DNA of 63,635 nt, counting the filler, from Limisphaerales bacterium (GTDB lineage: Bacteria > Verrucomicrobiota > Verrucomicrobiia > Limisphaerales > SIBE01), in NCBI GenBank assembly GCA_044225505.1. It is 3 parts of 3 records of this genome, joined end to end, with 100 filler letters (N's around TTAATTAATTAA, not from the genome) between each part and the next. Parts side by side here need not be neighbours in the genome. Positions count along the whole stretch, not along the records: positions 45,107 to 63,635 come from JBGAIN010000159.1; 2 more parts are not named here. One strand, 5' to 3'. The notes beneath the pieces were generated by a model that was not told where the DNA came from, ran no database searches, and was given only the letters and a program-made list of their open reading frames with translations. Shown here one piece after another: positions 51,957-62,902 of the stretch (its first letter is position 1; the number at the start of each line of letters is the position of its first letter). Both the position numbers and the translations under genes were made by a program.

Positions 51957-54900
51957 TCAGGCAAGAGCTCTCAACTCCAGTTGCACCGGGAGCCATTCGG
52001 TTTGGCATTCGATCGGAAGCTGGGTGATTGCGGTAGTCACCGGCGATGAGCAGATGCTGGCCAGCGCTGGCCAGCTGCGGAGAAGTGCTACCACGTCCTT
52101 GAGGAACGCACTGACTCTTTCAGACGAGTCGCTCGAATCTGCATTGAGCCTCCAGGCCCCATCAATAAGCGCTGCCCCAATTCGTGTTGAGTCAATCGGT
52201 TGGCTCGGCGCAAGTTCGACCTTCGGCGAAGCTCCGAGCTTGGCTAGTGCGATCAGTTCTGAACGAAGTTTCGCCTTCACGGTCGTTTCGCCGAGTTGGG
52301 CAGCCACCTGACATGTTGCCATGATTAACTCCGGCAGCTTCGCGTTCGTCGTAAATTCGCGAGCAAGGGCCAACGTCGAGAGCGTACGACTAAGGATTTC
52401 CCGCCCGCCGGTACTGAACGTTCCGGATCCTCCCAGAAACTCGACCAACCCCCAAAGGCTTGCGTCCCCAGGGTCACGGGCCAAGCGGCCGATTGCGCTT
52501 TGGAGATCACAGAACTGTTCCAGTGAGGAACACATGGCGATGGCATCGGGGCCCAGTAGCCGGGGAAGGAAGTTTTCGCGCGGCACCGCCAGAAACGAAT
52601 TCAGCCCATTAGAGTAGCGAGTGACCGGTTTCAAGAATGGTAAGCTTCCAATCTTTGTTTCCGAAACTAAAGTCGTAGACAATGCTTCTCGTACCCCACT
52701 TCCCATGATCACGGCTTCGGTAGTACCCTCGAAAAGGAAGCCCATGCCCCGTACCAGAAGGTCACCAGGATCGACATTTCGAGGGTGGCAAATGTCTCGT
52801 GGCCAGGAGCGGTGCACCCCCACATCTGCCTCGAGTTCCTGACTGTTGTCCGAGAACCAAGCCGTCATGTCTGCAGATGTGCCATGCGGGAGGATTGACT
52901 GTAACTGCCCGGCGTGGCTCCAGAGGGTCGCCAGACGGACCGCCATGGGCCAAGAGCAAAAATCTGGTCTCCATCCGAGTTGCATGCTTGCCCATCGCAG
53001 AATCGCTGAGAACTCCGCGGCCTCTGCTCCACCACGCTTGGGGTCGCAAAGATACGAAACGAATTCACGTACTCGCTCAGTAACCTCAAGCTTCGAGGAC
53101 GAACGAAGCCAAAGTCGCCCCAGGTGTAGGCGTTGAACAAAGCTGGTCATCTCGCTGGCCAGCTCGCCGAGAAGCGCAGCCGCCGTCGCGCTGTCTTGCG
53201 AATCAAACTGCTTCTCCACCAGCATCGGTAGCGCAGTAGGTAAGCACGAGAGTCGCCGGATTGTCTCCTGCAATCCTTCACTTCGCAGTAAATCGGCGGC
53301 GGTTGAGTCGCGAATGGAATTGGTTTCCGAGGAGCCTGTCCGGAGGCGCAGGAAACGCGGAAGACTTTCAATGCTTTTCGGGACGAGCTCGCTGATTGAG
53401 ATCATCCGCTTCCGCTCGAATGCGGATCGCAGTCCGGCATAGTAGTTTGCCATCGATTCGCTTTGATATTCCTCCAGCAGTTTCACACGCACGATTGGCT
53501 GAGTCGTACGGATGATCCTATCGATCGCTGCTTCGCGTTCTGCCGCATTTAAGTCGAACCACTCGGGATGAGCACGCAGCAGACGCGCCTTTTCGTCGAC
53601 ATGTTTGTCAAACAAAGGCAACATTTCTATCTCTGTCAAACCGTGCTTGAGAATACGAAGCGTTGTTGAAGTCGACCCTCTGGAAAAGCGCAATTTTCCT
53701 TTGCCGTCGATTGATTCTAGAGTGGCGCCTCCGTCCTTTGCCGCCCGCGCGACAGCAGCCCAGAACTTGTCATCATTAAAACTCATTCCTGCCATTTCGA
53801 TTCCCGACCGTTGGACCGAGATTCCATATTCCTGGAATCTCTCGTCGGGAAGCTCAAGGGCGGCCCTGATCTTGTCCGGAAGATCCAAAATCAATTCTCC
53901 TACCAGGAGTCGTATACCCATCTCCTCTGAGCTCTTTTCGCCGTGCCTCGAGCGAGCATCTTGGATCCACTGATCTGCACTCCGGAGAGTGTCCGCAAAA
54001 AATCCAGCTGCAATCCTGGCCAGAGCTGGCATTTTGGCAGAAAGCGGGTTCAGTAGCCGCTCGGTAATCCAGCGAAAGAACCTCTGGCGTCGTTCGGTGC
54101 GGCTCTCGCGTGGACCGCTGAAGCGCAAGCCTTGGGAATAAAAGAGGCCAAGTGTGAGGCCTAGCGAGTGGAGATCCGTCTCAGCGCCCTGACGCGACTT
54201 GTAACACTGGCGCAGGACGCGGAAATCTAGGAACAGACTATTCAGGACCCAGTCCGCACGCGCCTCAGCTTCCTCAAGCGTGGCTGTGCCAGTCCAGAGT
54301 GCCAGCAGAGCTTCGGTAGCGGTGCGGGTAAACGCGAGCGGCAGCGCCATCTCCCGTAAGGTCCATTCGCCAGATGAATTCGCGGCCGCTTCCTGAAGTA
54401 AGTCACAGTCCAGTAACATGCTCGCTGTGGCCCGTCGGACCGCACGAAGCGCCGGCGTCTCCTCCACCATATGGTTCTGTATGTGCGCTCGGGAGAGATG
54501 GTAAAGAATCTCGTCGTCTGTCAAAGGTAGATAGCGGGCGTTCGCTGCCCGGAGGCGGAGAATCCAGGCGTAGTAGTTGGCTTCACTTAAAAGCCCTGTT
54601 GTTCGTAAATGCGCAAAGAGATCCACTAAACCCGCAAGCGGGGACCGGCCCGTGGACTGATACGCTTGTAAGAAGCGATCGTCACAACAGACGATTGATC
54701 CGACGGTCTCGCCAAAGTCGATCGTATCGTAAAGACAAAGTTCCTCCAGGCTGACACCCTCGGCTCCGGTTTCTGGCACCGGGCGTGTTCGGAAATGCGT
54801 TCGATACTTTCCGGAGTTCTGACCGCGGGATAGTCGGTCTAGGAGGTCCCCGATCTGCTCCATCAGCTTCCGGTTTGCTAGGTCCGACTCGAGTTCGCGC

Positions 54901-57320
54901 TTTAGACCTGAGACCTCTGAACTTCCGATGAAGACCTCACAGTGAGCTGCCAGATGACGAAGGCAATCTTTGGATGCCAAATCCTCGGCGACGCCGTGCT
55001 CGAGGTAAACAAACATCCCCTTCCGCAATAGTGGCGGTGTGGAAGCGAGTACATTTTTTTCGCCCCCCCGCTGCAGATGAGTGTCCGGAAGTAGACCAGC
55101 CACGTTCATTGCATCCGTTAGTGCAGTTTCCGAGCAAACAAATTTGAAATCTTCGGTTGGCAGGGAGACCGGTCGCGGTGGATGCCGGTTGCTGATCAGC
55201 GGAAAATGGTCCACGAGCAATCCCCTGTTACCGCGAACCCACTCGAGGATCCCACACCACTCGTCGCCCATTAGATCCTGCAGACGATGACCGGTGATCG
55301 AACTTACTTCCGGATGATACTGCTTTACCTTTCCCCCATCGAGCAGCGCCAGGACGGCTTGCTGGGCGGCGAGCCGATTGGGTTGACGATGCGTGAGTTG
55401 CTCAAGCTCCAGAGTCAATGCAGCTGTTACGTGGTCGGACACTACGATTTCATCGAATATTTGCTCGATCACATCCAGAAAGCCGATCGCGTGGCAGAGA
55501 AAGACACTGGTCACGTCCAAATAGATTGTCTTCTCGCCTGCCGGTATTGCAGCGGGCATCTGGGCGGCCCTGAGTCCGTGCCGGATCAACAGTGGTGGGC
55601 AGAGACGAGGATAATCATGTGCAGAATTGCGAATCGCAGTCTCGACGATCAGGCGCCCAAGGCCTGTTCGGATACGACCCGGGAGAATATGAATCGGCAC
55701 TAAGCCTTTCGAGTAAAGCTCGAGAAGTTTTTCAGTTCCCGCATGGGATTCGCGGATGAACTCAATCATCTCCTCTATCGACAGTGCCTTAATTGGCGCC
55801 TCCCCGGATTGGGCCATGGCCGGGATCTCCTCCAGAAGATCAACGGCTCTTGATTCGACACCGAGTGCGAACGACTGAAGAGCGGCTTGGGTCTTTAGCA
55901 CTGGGTCCTCTCCAATGCTGTTCACTGCTTTCTCCCACAGCTTTGCAGCAAGTGCCGGATCTCTGAGGCGTACGACTGGGGCCACCTGGAGCAGGAAACT
56001 TGCAGGGACATCAGTCAATTCTAGCAGTTTGCGAGCGGTCACTGCACTGCCGATTAGATCCCCTTTCGCCTGCTGCAGCGAAAAAAGACGGCCGATGTTG
56101 GGAAAGTTAGGCTTCTCTAGGACGAGTTTCTCAAGCTCGCCGATCGCCAAGGGAACTCTCCCAAGGCGTCGCAAACACTCCGCCCGCAGCCTACGCAGAT
56201 CAGCCGCCAATTTCCCGCCGGAGCAAAGCCCATCGTGCGTATCCAGCAGGGAAAGCGTCAAATCGAAATTGTTATTATTAAAGCTGCCCTGAACCGCCAA
56301 ACGCAACGCACTCTCCGTTCGGATCTCCACGACCAGCCGCTTCGAATGTTCGGCTATGAACGCCCAGTCAGCAGCCTGAGCCTTTGCCTCACAGCAGCTC
56401 AGCAGGAGAGCCGGTTCTCCCGTCACTGCGAATGCCTGTTCCAGATGAGCCGCTATAGAACGAGGATCCTGAGAGCTTCGCGGGTTCGATCGAACCACGG
56501 CTGATTCCAACGCTACCCTACGGTGAACGTCCGGTTCATCCGCGAGTAGTGCACTTGCTTCCTCGACGCGACCAAGTGCCGCGAGACATTGAATTTTGTG
56601 CGTCCGCCATGCGCAAATTGCGTCCCAACGACTGAAGCTACCTTTAGTCTCCGCTAAAATGGCCTCTGCTGCTCCGAATTGATCACTCGTTCCAAGCGCG
56701 ATGAGCAGGGCCTCTACCTTCTCTCGATCAGTCGTGCCTTTGGCAATGCCTTCGCGCAGTTTTTCTATCGAGGACCTTCGGTTAAACTCGTAGTCCCGTT
56801 CACACGCCCAAACAATGGCGGGAGCGTAATCCGGCGAGTCAGACAGGATCGACTGGGCCAGACTCTGAGCATTCTCTTGATCCAGATCGTTGGCAAGGCA
56901 GGCAAGCTCCCAAACACGTAGTGAATTGCGATCTTGTCTGAGAGCAAGCGCCAGCAGTTCGCGGAACCTTGCCGCGGCCGAAGCGCGTCTCGCTGCGCTT
57001 TCGGGATCACGCTTAACAAAGCTCCAGGGTGGTGGAATCGGCCAGCTGAGGTGACTCCATGCGGGGAAAGCTGTTGAAACCGTGCTGGCATAATCCACAA
57101 TCGCGGCGGTGAGGCGCAGGCCAAAGTGGTTTGGCTTAGACCGGAGCTCTTGCTTAACCAACTCCCGCGCCTCGTCTGGCCTTCTCATCAGCAGCATGGC
57201 CAAGGCTTTCGAGTGCGCGGTCTCTGCCGTCGGAGTAAAGTGCGGCGGTGGCGTAGCAACGCGCGCCAAGACTTCTTCGGGACGCCCAAGTTCAAGCAAA
57301 AGTTGAAGCGTTAATCCCAC
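51957..57320 (-). CDS. Large TPR-like/PIN-like protein (C-terminal part of a split gene)
   Basis: Helical repeats, then IYLDVTSVFL...IFDEIVVS, VYLEHGV and IVCCDDRFL PIN-like motifs. Confidence 0.7.
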   Translation of the reverse strand: MGLTLQLLLELGRPEEVLARVATPPPHFTPTAETAHSKALAMLLMRRPDEARELVKQELRSKPNHFGLRLTAAIVDYASTVSTAFPAWSHLSWPIPPPWSFVKRDPESAARRASAAARFRELLALALRQDRNSLRVWELACLANDLDQENAQSLAQSILSDSPDYAPAIVWACERDYEFNRRSSIEKLREGIAKGTTDREKVEALLIALGTSDQFGAAEAILAETKGSFSRWDAICAWRTHKIQCLAALGRVEEASALLADEPDVHRRVALESAVVRSNPRSSQDPRSIAAHLEQAFAVTGEPALLLSCCEAKAQAADWAFIAEHSKRLVVEIRTESALRLAVQGSFNNNNFDLTLSLLDTHDGLCSGGKLAADLRRLRAECLRRLGRVPLAIGELEKLVLEKPNFPNIGRLFSLQQAKGDLIGSAVTARKLLELTDVPASFLLQVAPVVRLRDPALAAKLWEKAVNSIGEDPVLKTQAALQSFALGVESRAVDLLEEIPAMAQSGEAPIKALSIEEMIEFIRESHAGTEKLLELYSKGLVPIHILPGRIRTGLGRLIVETAIRNSAHDYPRLCPPLLIRHGLRAAQMPAAIPAGEKTIYLDVTSVFLCHAIGFLDVIEQIFDEIVVSDHVTAALTLELEQLTHRQPNRLAAQQAVLALLDGGKVKQYHPEVSSITGHRLQDLMGDEWCGILEWVRGNRGLLVDHFPLISNRHPPRPVSLPTEDFKFVCSETALTDAMNVAGLLPDTHLQRGGEKNVLASTPPLLRKGMFVYLEHGVAEDLASKDCLRHLAAHCEVFIGSSEVSGLKRELESDLANRKLMEQIGDLLDRLSRGQNSGKYRTHFRTRPVPETGAEGVSLEELCLYDTIDFGETVGSIVCCDDRFLQAYQSTGRSPLAGLVDLFAHLRTTGLLSEANYYAWILRLRAANARYLPLTDDEILYHLSRAHIQNHMVEETPALRAVRRATASMLLDCDLLQEAAANSSGEWTLREMALPLAFTRTATEALLALWTGTATLEEAEARADWVLNSLFLDFRVLRQCYKSRQGAETDLHSLGLTLGLFYSQGLRFSGPRESRTERRQRFFRWITERLLNPLSAKMPALARIAAGFFADTLRSADQWIQDARSRHGEKSSEEMGIRLLVGELILDLPDKIRAALELPDERFQEYGISVQRSGIEMAGMSFNDDKFWAAVARAAKDGGATLESIDGKGKLRFSRGSTSTTLRILKHGLTEIEMLPLFDKHVDEKARLLRAHPEWFDLNAAEREAAIDRIIRTTQPIVRVKLLEEYQSESMANYYAGLRSAFERKRMISISELVPKSIESLPRFLRLRTGSSETNSIRDSTAADLLRSEGLQETIRRLSCLPTALPMLVEKQFDSQDSATAAALLGELASEMTSFVQRLHLGRLWLRSSSKLEVTERVREFVSYLCDPKRGGAEAAEFSAILRWASMQLGWRPDFCSWPMAVRLATLWSHAGQLQSILPHGTSADMTAWFSDNSQELEADVGVHRSWPRDICHPRNVDPGDLLVRGMGFLFEGTTEAVIMGSGVREALSTTLVSETKIGSLPFLKPVTRYSNGLNSFLAVPRENFLPRLLGPDAIAMCSSLEQFCDLQSAIGRLARDPGDASLWGLVEFLGGSGTFSTGGREILSRTLSTLALAREFTTNAKLPELIMATCQVAAQLGETTVKAKLRSELIALAKLGASPKVELAPSQPIDSTRIGAALIDGAWRLNADSSDSSERVSAFLKDVVALLRSWPALASICSSPVTTAITQLPIECQTEWLPVQLELRALA

Positions 57321-58237
57321 TCTTCCACGGTGCCCGGCACGGAAAGGAATTCGAGTGCAGCCTCCAACGTCGTAGAGTGCTTGAGAATCAAAGCTTCGAG
57401 CGCGCGTGTGTTTGCGGAAGGACAGAGTGCCTTCGCTGTCTCTAGCAGCTGCTGGGCAGTCGAAACATCGTCCAAGACATTCAGCGTGAGACTTGCCCGA
57501 ATTCGCACCGCTTTCGCACGGATGATATCGGGCATGTCCTGCCAGGCCGCCGTCAGTTGCAGCGCGACAACCCGTTCGAGGGCTTCAACTCCCTTTCCTT
57601 CTGCGGCCAACTCGCGGACCCGGTCAAGATCTCTATTCCGCTCCTCGGCCAGCTCCGTCATGAGTAATCCTTGGCGTCGGATGACCGACCCCAGTCCCGC
57701 TATTGTCGCAGAGTCGGCCTGTTTACCTTGTGGACCGCAGATCTCGTTAACCCAGAATTCACTTTGGGTATGAGCCCAAACTACCTCGCGGTGTGGGCGA
57801 AGCTGGCGCTGCAACTTCCGCGCATCCCAAGCCTCGTATGCGATCCCGAGTTGCTCAAAGCGTTCAATCTCGATAAGAACCTGGTCCTGAACTTTCGTAT
57901 CATCCGTCGGGCATGCCGCGAACGGTATAAAGCGCTTCAGGCGCCTCTCCTTCCAATGGTCTAGGTGTTTGAGGAATTCGTCCGACGCCTCCTGGACCTT
58001 TGATGCAGTGACGTCACCTTCCCAGCATTTGCATTGGCCAACGTCAATCCCGGAGCCATCTGCAAAAATCGCGAGGATATCAATACCCTTTTGAGCTTGG
58101 CCGTTCCTACCGTAGACCTGGCTATCCGAATACTTCGTATCTTGGTCCAGAAGCTCGGCGCATAGCGCCTGGAACTTGAACACTCCAAGTTCGTAGAACC
58201 TTGGCGGCACACTGGAATTCAGCCCAGGTGAAATCAT
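57311..58237 (-). CDS. PD-(D/E)XK restriction-endonuclease-like domain protein (N-terminal part of a split gene)
   Basis: FQALCAELL...YGRNGQAQKGIDI...GQCK; ATG at 58237. Confidence 0.7.
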   Translation of the reverse strand: MISPGLNSSVPPRFYELGVFKFQALCAELLDQDTKYSDSQVYGRNGQAQKGIDILAIFADGSGIDVGQCKCWEGDVTASKVQEASDEFLKHLDHWKERRLKRFIPFAACPTDDTKVQDQVLIEIERFEQLGIAYEAWDARKLQRQLRPHREVVWAHTQSEFWVNEICGPQGKQADSATIAGLGSVIRRQGLLMTELAEERNRDLDRVRELAAEGKGVEALERVVALQLTAAWQDMPDIIRAKAVRIRASLTLNVLDDVSTAQQLLETAKALCPSANTRALEALILKHSTTLEAALEFLSVPGTVEEWD

Positions 58238-58597
58238 GTATCGAGGGCGGCCTTTGGTAATCGGAGGCAAACCCTCTCCGCTGCAACGCTGACGAACAAA
58301 ACAACAGCACGGGAAATCCTCATGACCCTTTCGTCTGATTTCGTCTGAGCACGGCGACACGTTAGCGAATTGCGGGGTAGAATGGAAGCTTGTTGGGTGC
58401 TCAGCGGCTTTTGAATTACTGCCGACCATCGCGTAGTTGGAACCACGTCGTTAACCTGACTGGTCGGACGGCAACACGGCTGGAGCGTGTTGCGGATGCC
58501 GAGAGCTTCGTTGCAGGCTTCAAACGGGCTGAGAGAACCTATTGGCAAGCAAACTGACCGCGAAGCAGGGCTCGCGTCAGGTGGGCCGCCGAGCTTC

Positions 58598-58906
58598 TCA
58601 CGATTGAACTTCTTCCGCGAGGTCACCTTCGGAGCGCTGCTTTTCAGTTTCCGCGCGTGAGCGGAGCGAGGCCAGTTTGTTGGTGTCGCCAAACCAGGTG
58701 ACAGCACCGCAGCGGGTGCACATCCGTGCCGTCGTTTCCACGTTGTTGTCCTTCAAAGTCCAGAATTTCGTCTTCTTCGGAACGAAGTAGACCAAGCCGG
58801 CTCCACGGACTTTGCCTTCGACCAACTCGTCGTGGTGGCAGATTGACGCGGTTAATGCGACATCGTTTGCGAGGGGTCGCGTAGCCATCACTTCGACCAC
58901 CCTCAA
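58598..58906 (-). CDS. Small hypothetical zinc-ribbon-like protein
   Basis: ARMCTRCG; lies directly after rtcB; start uncertain. Confidence 0.45.
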   Translation of the reverse strand: MRVVEVMATRPLANDVALTASICHHDELVEGKVRGAGLVYFVPKKTKFWTLKDNNVETTARMCTRCGAVTWFGDTNKLASLRSRAETEKQRSEGDLAEEVQS

Positions 58907-60434: not shown

Positions 60435-60468
60435 AATGCTGCTTTCCGAATTGTTTCCCAAATAGACA

Positions 60469-60579
60469 GCGCGACAAGTTTTTGTCGAAACAATCGCTCT
60501 ACCACTGAGCTACGGCCTCATTCATTGAGACCGACGGGAGTCGAACCCGCGACCGATGTAGTTCCAACCGCATTCGCGC
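60469..60579 (-). ncRNA. Y-RNA-like unit F (YrlA-like: T arm, closed acceptor stem, D arm)
   Basis: GCGCGAATGC..GGAACTACAT-[GCGGGTTCGACTCCCGT, acceptor hairpin, TAGCTCAGTGGTAGAGC]-TTGTCGCGC. Confidence 0.8.
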
Positions 60580-60611
60580 CGAAATCATTTAACCGACGAC
60601 CAACTAAAAAG

Positions 60612-60742
60612 CGCGACGACAAGGTTTGGAGAAACATTTCCGCTGCTCTATCCACTGAGCTACTCCAACCTTTAGAAGGTCGGAGGCCGGATTTGAACCG
60701 GCGACCGTCGGATTACATGTAGTTACTCCGGCATTCGTCGCG
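60612..60742 (-). ncRNA. Y-RNA-like unit E (tRNA permuted in the anticodon loop)
   Basis: Same clamp; GCCGGTTCAAATCCGGC T arm, 10-bp acceptor hairpin, D arm and CGGA/TCCG anticodon stem. Confidence 0.8.
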
Positions 60743-60748
60743 AAAGAC

Positions 60749-60881
60749 TGTGACGACAAAATTGATGAAACGTATTAACGCGCTCTACCGCTGAGCTACG
60801 ATCCCATCTGGTGGAATCGGTGGGACTCGAACCCACGACCTCGTCCTCTTTAAGGATGTAGTTCCATCGGCATTCGTCACA
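60749..60881 (-). ncRNA. Y-RNA-like unit D (complete permuted tRNA with ACCA)
   Basis: Same clamp; anticodon loop, variable loop, T arm, CGATTCC-ACCA-gat-GGGATCG and D arm. Confidence 0.82.
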
Positions 60882-60892
60882 AAATCCCGAAA

Positions 60893-60993
60893 ATGGCGAC
60901 AAGGGTTGACGCGAATTCTCAACCAGCCTTGCAGCTGATCGGGCGGAATTTGAATCCGCTGGTTGCCAATGTATTCCCGTCTGCATTCGCCAT
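60893..60993 (-). ncRNA. Y-RNA-like unit C (T arm and acceptor hairpin only)
   Basis: ATGGCGAATGC...GCGGATTCAAATTCCGC...TTGTCGCCAT. Confidence 0.72.
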
Positions 60994-61005
60994 AACATTT
61001 CAAGA

Positions 61006-61136
61006 AGCAGCGCGACAAATAGGTGCAGGACAGTTTTTCTGAGCTATTCCGTTTGCACGGAACCGGGATACGAACCCGGGGCCTCCCGGCTAGGTCGGGC
61101 GCTCTACCATGTAGTCCTGCGGGCATTCCCGCCGCT
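61006..61136 (-). ncRNA. Y-RNA-like unit B (tRNA permuted in the D loop)
   Basis: The insert starts GGTAGAGC and ends TAGCTCAG, with anticodon-like, T and acceptor arms in between. Confidence 0.78.
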
Positions 61137-61170
61137 CCAAATCTCTCAAAGATCCATCACTGTCGAAACA

Positions 61171-61230
61171 GGCCGACAAATTTGTGCCGAGACTTTACAG
61201 TTGGGATGTAGTCCCAGGCGGCATTCGGCC
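61171..61230 (-). ncRNA. Y-RNA-like unit A (clamp only, 60 nt)
   Basis: GGCCGAATGCCG..GGGACTACAT...TTGTCGGCC with no tRNA module. Confidence 0.68.
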
Positions 61231-61299
61231 CGCAAAATCATTTTCCGCTCAGACCGGCCACGCCCGAATGGACGTGGCCGGGCACACTTCCCTGATCGC

Positions 61300-62886: not shown

Positions 62887-62902
62887 TGCAGCCGCTGTGC
62901 CA
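62887..62902 (-). promoter_or_regulatory. Sigma54 -24/-12 promoter of the Ro60-Y RNA-rtcB operon
   Basis: TGGCAC-AGCGG-CTGCA, 33 nt upstream of the ATG and divergent from rtcR. Confidence 0.8.

Follow-up and report, generated by a model that had tools for sequence, protein, structure and literature searches.

Six Y RNA-like units on a common Ro60 handle, one with its tRNA module opened in the D loop, between rsr and rtcB of a Limisphaerales bacterium

In bacteria, Y RNAs link Rsr, the Ro60 protein, to PNPase and are processed from polycistronic precursors (PMC4201824; here and below, statements on published work refer to the parts of the sources covered). The locus analysed here raises the question of why one Ro60 gene should be followed by six small-RNA units that share a stem and differ in what the stem carries. 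The window, by which we mean the whole stretch of 63,635 nucleotides that was analysed, is composed of three contigs joined, with the rsr-rtcB locus at the end of contig C266. The units, named A to F, lie on the minus strand between the rsr stop codon and rtcB, separated by spacers of 4–32 nt (Table 1).

Table 1. Positions of the operon genes, the six units and their parts in the window.
Feature	Position	Strand	Basis
rtcR, divergent, N-terminal 199 aa, cut by contig end	63038..63635	+	NCBIfam NF038308, E 2.5e-65, profile positions 2-195/530
sigma54 (-24/-12) promoter-like site, 34 nt before rsr start	62888..62902	-	pattern match
rsr (Ro60), 517 aa	61300..62853	-	Pfam vWA_Ro60 E 5.6e-20, TROVE E 5.3e-08, each above its cut-off
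Unit A, short hairpin capping the handle, tRNA module absent (YrlB/Yrn2-like)	61168-61233	-	14 chosen homologues
Unit B, tRNA module opened in D loop	61007-61135	-	own covariance model, 42 distinct homologues
B, D-loop 3' half and D-stem 3' strand	61101-61108	-	
B, anticodon-position arm	61085-61099	-	
B, T arm	61063-61079	-	
B, capped acceptor, 6 bp	61047-61062	-	
B, U8-A9, D-stem 5' strand, A14-G15	61039-61046	-	
Unit C, handle followed directly by GG, then T arm and a single long hairpin	60891-60995	-	YrlA 33.7 bits
Unit D, YrlA opened in anticodon-stem 5' strand, 7-nt anticodon loop kept	60748-60882	-	YrlA 62.8 bits
D, anticodon loop, triplet AAA	60847-60853	-	
Unit E, YrlA, anticodon stem kept, handle replaces loop	60611-60743	-	YrlA 68.7 bits
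Unit F, YrlA without anticodon arm, 7-bp acceptor	60466-60582	-	YrlA 81.8 bits
rtcB RNA ligase, 503 aa	58923..60434	-	Pfam RtcB E 6.6e-97

The genes surrounding the array show the arrangement of an RtcR-controlled RNA repair operon, with a divergent rtcR, a sigma54 site and rtcB, and the Pfam and NCBIfam matches, together with the promoter-like site, support the Ro60/RtcB/RtcR/sigma54 context given in a preliminary description of this DNA. The rtcA cyclase gene expected in such an operon was not found by PF01137 in the 95%-complete genome, in a search whose controls were positive in 5/14. The Ro60 protein also matches NCBIfam Rsr (E 5.8e-25), under that family's 900-bit cut-off, and the rest of an RtcR-like frame is read on contig C318, the start of which overlaps the window end at 96%. 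Taken alone the sigma54 site is weak, because 0.73 matches of this type are expected by chance in the window against the one found; its position is conserved, however, with a like site 34–37 nt before rsr in 20 of the 39 related loci examined and within 400 nt upstream in 26. Among the best 80 of 449 Ro60 loci retrieved from genomes, RtcR lies within 4 kb of Ro60 in 41 and RtcB in 35. The layout of divergent rtcR, sigma54 site, rsr, Y RNAs and rtcB is that of the Salmonella rtcR/rsr-yrlBA-rtcBA operon, from which the window differs in having six Y RNAs rather than two and in the rtcA gene, which was not found (PMC7790460). Directly after rtcB is a 102-aa ORF with a CxxC motif and no Pfam match (58598-58906, minus strand), and further downstream are a 1787-aa ORF and a 372-aa ORF, the latter of restriction-nuclease type by eye (51957-58429, minus strand). 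Elsewhere in the window, contig C245 (39254-45006) contains stretches of 340–565 nt repeated at ~96% identity.

The handle common to the units is composed of GAAUGC, 4–9 nt and RA(C/A)UACAU before the insert and UUGUCG after it, and a search of both strands of the genome (9,036,838 bases) gave six matches, all within the array. The flanks of each unit pair with each other at 5–7 of 7 positions, and in a Watson-Crick cross matrix of all flanks the unit's own partner is best for four of the six and tied for A and F, in agreement with the earlier proposal of a common clamp with individual outer stems. Folding z-scores range from -1.4 to -3.3. A long stem formed by the 5' and 3' ends, a trait of bacterial Y RNAs, is present in all six units, and the motif GNCGAAN(0-1)G is exact in A, C, D and E, lacks its first G in F, and lacks its first G and its C in B. 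Bacterial Y RNAs fall in a size class of 80–220 nt, and unit A, at 66 nt, is below this range. The anatomy of the inserts proposed previously also stands: A has none, B is a tRNA module opened in the D loop, C is a T arm with a hairpin, D has a nicked anticodon stem, E has the stem without its loop, and F is without the anticodon arm.

The units were also considered as tRNA genes or as tmRNA, and both were rejected: ARAGORN found no tRNA gene in the window, no tRNA model matched at its cut-off, and the tmRNA and tRNA models gave partial matches below cut-off. Since the T arms fit several host tRNAs about equally (13–16 of 17 positions), no source tRNA was assigned to any unit. Four metatranscriptome runs contained 6–7% of the words searched, and among the contigs assembled from relatives some overlap B-C (215 nt, 7 differences), D (over 153 nt, with 2 differences) or D-E in part. 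Coverage extends to rsr, rtcB and rtcR as well, and the short matches are for the most part tRNA-like pieces of other organisms. As such contigs show neither ends nor strand and come with no DNA control, we draw no inference from them on expression of the units.

In units D, E and F the T arm stands 5' of the D arm with a loop-closed acceptor between them, which is the order of YrlA, and the three differ only in the amount of anticodon arm that is kept. They lie 418–834 nt downstream of the rsr stop on the same strand, within the 4 kb used as the limit. Against the Rfam YrlA model (RF02553, gathering cut-off 69 bits) F is above the cut-off, and E (E 1.7e-14) and D (E 8.2e-13) are just below it with full-length matches; they also agree with YrlA in the handle motif, in beginning with the T arm and ending with the D arm around a capped acceptor, in keeping the Levitt pair and in having rsr and rtcB as neighbours. 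The preliminary description had the tRNA modules permuted at different sites. Because D, E and F all follow the YrlA order, the array contains two wirings of the tRNA module, this one and the D-loop-opened one of B, and not five. The circularly permuted module of YrlA and the differently orientated one of Yrn1 are already in print, from different species (PMC4201824), and size differences in the acceptor, anticodon-stem and variable regions of YrlA were noted with the Salmonella structure (bioRxiv 10.1101/312249). The view that known loci have one or two Y RNAs was likewise superseded, since two or three YrlA per locus are tabulated for Verrucomicrobia and Planctomycetes, with three in Pedosphaera parvula and Rhodopirellula baltica and two in Chthoniobacter flavus (Table S1, Chen 2014; PMC4201824). 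The bacterial Y RNA literature also describes several small RNAs beside the Deinococcus rsr gene.

A set of 170 distinct units in YrlA order, reduced to 158 by dropping 12 that were misparsed, was used to examine these structures. The Levitt pair is G-C in 104 and A-U in 47 of the 158. An acceptor of at least 7 bp is found in 56/59 D-class and 33/37 F-class units, and in the E length class 4–5 of the 5 anticodon-stem pairs are formed in 50/59 units. Of the 158 units, 48 have a 20-nt piece before the T stem and were selected by this length only; among them the proposed anticodon-stem pairs are formed in 48 (27:43), 48 (28:42), 41 (29:41), 48 (30:40) and 47 (31:39) units, each with several pair types, and the proposed register gave 137 of 144 pairs versus 13–56 in shifted registers. 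The 27 distinct loops have a pyrimidine at 32 and U33 in 27/27, a purine at 37 in 25/27 and A or C at 38 in 27/27. This pairing and loop pattern identify the D hairpin as an anticodon arm with a nick in the 5' strand, as the preliminary description had it; in the window unit the 7-bp acceptor is followed by ACCA. The triplet takes 20 values among the 48 units, and 13 of these 20 are ordinary bacterial anticodons by a general list of such triplets, where chance alone would give 69%. In entropy the triplet does not exceed the loop capping the acceptor, and AAA, the triplet in the window, is absent among the host's 46 predicted tRNAs. Such drift, with real anticodons no commoner than chance, argues against a decoy tuned to a particular toxin.

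This hairpin is called the variable arm ('V') in Chen 2014 and in the structure preprint (PMC4201824; bioRxiv 10.1101/312249). We read the D-type form by eye in 4 of the 11 rows of the Chen 2014 alignment, M. smegmatis included, so the form itself is old; relative to the literature covered, reading it as an anticodon stem-loop is new. The C. flavus entries in Table S1 of Chen 2014 are E- and D-type units, and a degenerate B-like unit of its locus (L031) is absent from that table.

Unit B is wired differently. Its insert runs from the 3' half of the D loop through the anticodon-position arm, the T arm and the capped acceptor to the 5' half of the D stem, so that, unlike in YrlA, the handle divides the D arm in two and the anticodon-position arm stands between D and T. 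The existing YrlA model covers D, E and F, which are YrlA, but not B, which scores 19.7 bits (E 0.6) and lacks the T-before-D order. Five divergent B units gave 27.5–34.7 bits or were unlisted with the same model. With a model built from 15 B units, 16 of the 80 genome loci contain a match of 92–146 bits, although 14 of these 16 are training rows; the next match has 59 bits.

Homologues support this architecture. The alignment holds 43 matches from 42 chosen sources (42 distinct), with two damaged units, duplicates and L153 left out. Over these 42 homologues, 96.5% of 1545 cells are paired and both sides change in 30 of 37 pairs, which agrees with the covariation expected by the preliminary description; none of 500 shuffles reached as high a value, and slid registers were 32–48% paired. 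Changes on both sides occur in 6/6 pairs of the anticodon-position arm, 6/6 of the acceptor and 4/5 of the T stem. The D stem is nearly invariant, with such changes in 2/4 pairs and in one sequence each. Since the alignment was fitted to the proposed structure and many of its rows are close kin, the evidence from covariation is strong where the helices vary and thin in the D stem. Outside the model, the tertiary Levitt pair 15:48, which links the end of the module (15) with its middle (48), is G-C in 31, A-U in 5 and otherwise in 6 of the 42 units, and U8 and A14 are present in 42/42 and 41/42. The loop of the anticodon-position arm is ~2–9 nt long and in 0/42 units is a 7-nt YU..R loop. T-loop position 58 is U in 22/42 and A in 16/42, and this U in place of A58 suggests that the tRNA elbow of B may be imperfect. 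In 26 of 39 distinct B units, the window unit included, G replaces the conserved C of the Ro60-binding motif (GGAAUG versus CGAAUG), which counts against standard Ro60 binding.

Among described RNAs, Deinococcus radiodurans Yrn1 is like B in having D-loop features, an anticodon-like arm and the T arm after the 5' handle strand (PMC4201824). As judged from its published model rather than its sequence, Yrn1 lacks both a separate capped acceptor and a full D arm and has a metazoan-type handle, whereas B has a capped acceptor and a D stem completed by a 3' strand.

B-like units occur beyond the close relatives of the window. A B-specific pattern gave 73 metagenome stretches, of which 35, without the 3' half, were dropped as chance; of the 38 handle units retained, 35 have Ro60 within 1.5 kb. 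The form adjoins Ro60 proteins only ~60–70% identical to that of the window, in Verrucomicrobiota and one Planctomycetota record. A whole-genome search with the B model, in which only 22 candidates were scored per genome, gave no match in 150 genomes of the phylum; none was found in the 12 other genomes of the family or in 50,697 phage records. Viral contigs gave 2 + 2 + 2 stretches with three patterns, all judged to be chance. B units together with a hairpin unit lie inside arrays of 8–11 tRNA genes at L094:1410-1622 and L119:100-224, and these stretches of 2.0 and 1.2 kb contain no Ro60; this placement of the two B units fits an origin from tandem tRNA genes. In L123 (identical to L151) nine handle units form one array, two of them D-loop-opened.

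Of the remaining units, C carries 17 of 28 consensus pairs with both-side changes among 16 chosen homologues, its T arm covarying and its hairpin variable. The insert begins with GG in 64/79 T-arm-only units versus 2/59 D, 10/62 E and 4/91 hairpin units (GG is also found in 23/37 F units, there derived from the variable loop), and the first words of T-arm-only inserts are D-loop-like (GGCAA in 27, GGUAA in 14). On account of this GG and these words, C is probably a reduced D-loop-opened unit, that is, a reduced B. Unit A shows both-side changes in 6 of 21 pairs among its homologues; it has no Rfam match at E<=1 and does not reach the 97-bit cut-off of YrlB (RF02565), on which its copy in L018 scores 17.3 bits. 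The likeness of these units to YrlB, Yrn2 and the M. smegmatis YrlB with a T arm is one of layout only, with no match at the family cut-off.

Comparison of related loci shows how such arrays vary. The closest Ro60 proteins in this set of 80 are 82–93% identical, mostly from Verrucomicrobiota records, Pedosphaera among them. Over the genome loci and metagenome stretches the handle detector called 474 units, a figure that contains duplicates and a few false calls, and the number of units per locus ranges from 1 to 9. Of the 80 genome loci, 75 have handle units (in one of them probably a false call) and 21 have at least 5, contig ends truncating many of the loci. The order A-B-C-D-E-F recurs in 5/80 (L006, L007, L009, L010, L016), and L018 and L011 have it with one extra or swapped unit; recurrence of the order indicates that the units are maintained separately. 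Close relatives have lost single units (L014 is without B and C, L015 without B, L019 without C), so no unit is indispensable, and the absence of Ro60 from all 12 other genomes of the family makes the operon accessory. A quick Ro60 tree, with 21 of 77 inner branches open, displays unit content only and orders no events. Two further units (L119:246-330 region, minus strand, and L085:5960-6080) have the native tRNA order of whole D arm, anticodon-position arm and T arm, with the handle replacing the acceptor stem, and represent a third wiring on the same handle. Acidobacterial loci (L042, L045, L046, L054, L060, L063, L067, L068, L075, L077, L083, L085) have, as the last unit or the one before it, a GAGC/GCUC stem around two hairpins with no recognisable T loop, possibly eroded D-loop-opened units. 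Another conserved insert, not tRNA-like, is found at L011:5727-5857, L018:4053-4183, L087:1346 and L141:1355, with no Rfam match in L018.

The reading that we favour, and hold to be reasonably probable, is that RtcR induces a transcript from which the six RNAs are released by cutting, and that these use their common stem to bind Ro60, serving as tethers or gates by which the tRNA shape is presented in different orientations. To the observed anatomy, conservation, covariation and context of the array it adds induction, processing, Ro60 binding and tethering by analogy with work in Salmonella, Mycobacterium and Deinococcus. tRNA fragments activate the rtcR operon, and RtcR binds 5' tRNA fragments with a cyclic phosphate (PMC7790460); here, damaged tRNA would activate RtcR to yield one operon transcript, from which the six small RNAs would be cut. 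Each would bind the Ro60 ring by the same 5'/3' stem while carrying a different module, and the modules would imitate tRNA shape and not one particular tRNA, shape over identity being suggested by the lack of an anticodon-type loop in 42 B units and by the 20 triplets of the 48 D units. In D, E and F the handle would sit on the anticodon arm, leaving elbow and acceptor arm free. The M. smegmatis YrlA is cleaved by RNase P and receives CCA, an acceptor stem of at least 7 bp being the feature tied to this cleavage (PMC4201824), and D and F, with 7-bp acceptors, may be opened in the same way. In B the handle would sit on the D loop beside the elbow, with both arms free and each closed by an arbitrary loop; C would be a stripped B and A a bare handle. 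The set would work as interchangeable tethers or gates through which Ro60, in RNA repair and decay, gains different partners or takes up different orientations. More tentatively, and with considerable doubt, the Ro60 handle could be a portable tag that tRNA has received at more than one site (in the anticodon stem, the anticodon loop and the D loop here, with native order in L119 and L085), the arrays keeping grafts that show different tRNA faces to different enzymes; B would then be a separate, undescribed Y RNA family offering both arms and masking the elbow, and D a complete tRNA with an anticodon loop and possibly a CCA end, tethered to Ro60.

Other explanations must be set against these. 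The array might be directed at tRNA-cutting nucleases, with every unit a decoy or competitive inhibitor for an enzyme of its own; the decoy idea is already in print, as Hughes 2020 suggested YrlA as a competitive inhibitor of an anticodon nuclease (PMC7790460). The operon responds to tRNA cleavage, the D loops keep a real anticodon-loop signature, and the drift of the D triplet could reflect an arms race; however, five of the six units have no anticodon loop, the triplet is neither conserved nor enriched for real anticodons, and the SOS nuclease did not cut Salmonella YrlA, itself an RNA without the loop (PMC7790460). The decoys for different tRNA-cutting toxins of the preliminary description are weakened by these results, and we regard a decoy panel as unlikely. 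The anticodon loop could instead make D a built-in sensor or substrate, cut like a tRNA, the nicked RNA on Ro60 then serving as RtcR ligand or RtcB substrate to tune operon feedback. D has every tRNA arm, the U-turn loop signature and a 7-bp acceptor, and the ligand would resemble the fragments that RtcR binds; this explanation leaves A, B, C, E and F unaccounted for, several loci are without a D unit, and we give it very little credence.

A duplication series, in which one or two units work and the others are redundant copies drifting in structure and stabilised by the handle, would accommodate the variable number of units per locus, the loss of single units in close relatives and the accessory nature of the operon. 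Against it, compensatory changes preserve a separate structure in each unit type, and B occurs beside the ~60–70% identical Ro60 proteins of two phyla; we hold a duplication series to be improbable.

The literature covered comprises parts of PMC4201824, bioRxiv 10.1101/312249, PMC7790460, PMC10159003, PMC10424219, PMC12135203, PMC8394870, PMC7824862 and PMC11472068, in which no description of a D-loop-opened Y RNA was found; within this coverage the novelty of the form is provisional. Since it is missed by Rfam and by tRNA finders, genomes are credited with too few Y RNAs. If the 'V' hairpin is read as an anticodon arm, a direct prediction follows for the YrlA of M. smegmatis, which is already in laboratory use. 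The array, with variants on one handle that retain or lack the anticodon loop, D arm or elbow, is a natural deletion series for finding the partner of the tRNA-like module in bacterial Y RNAs.
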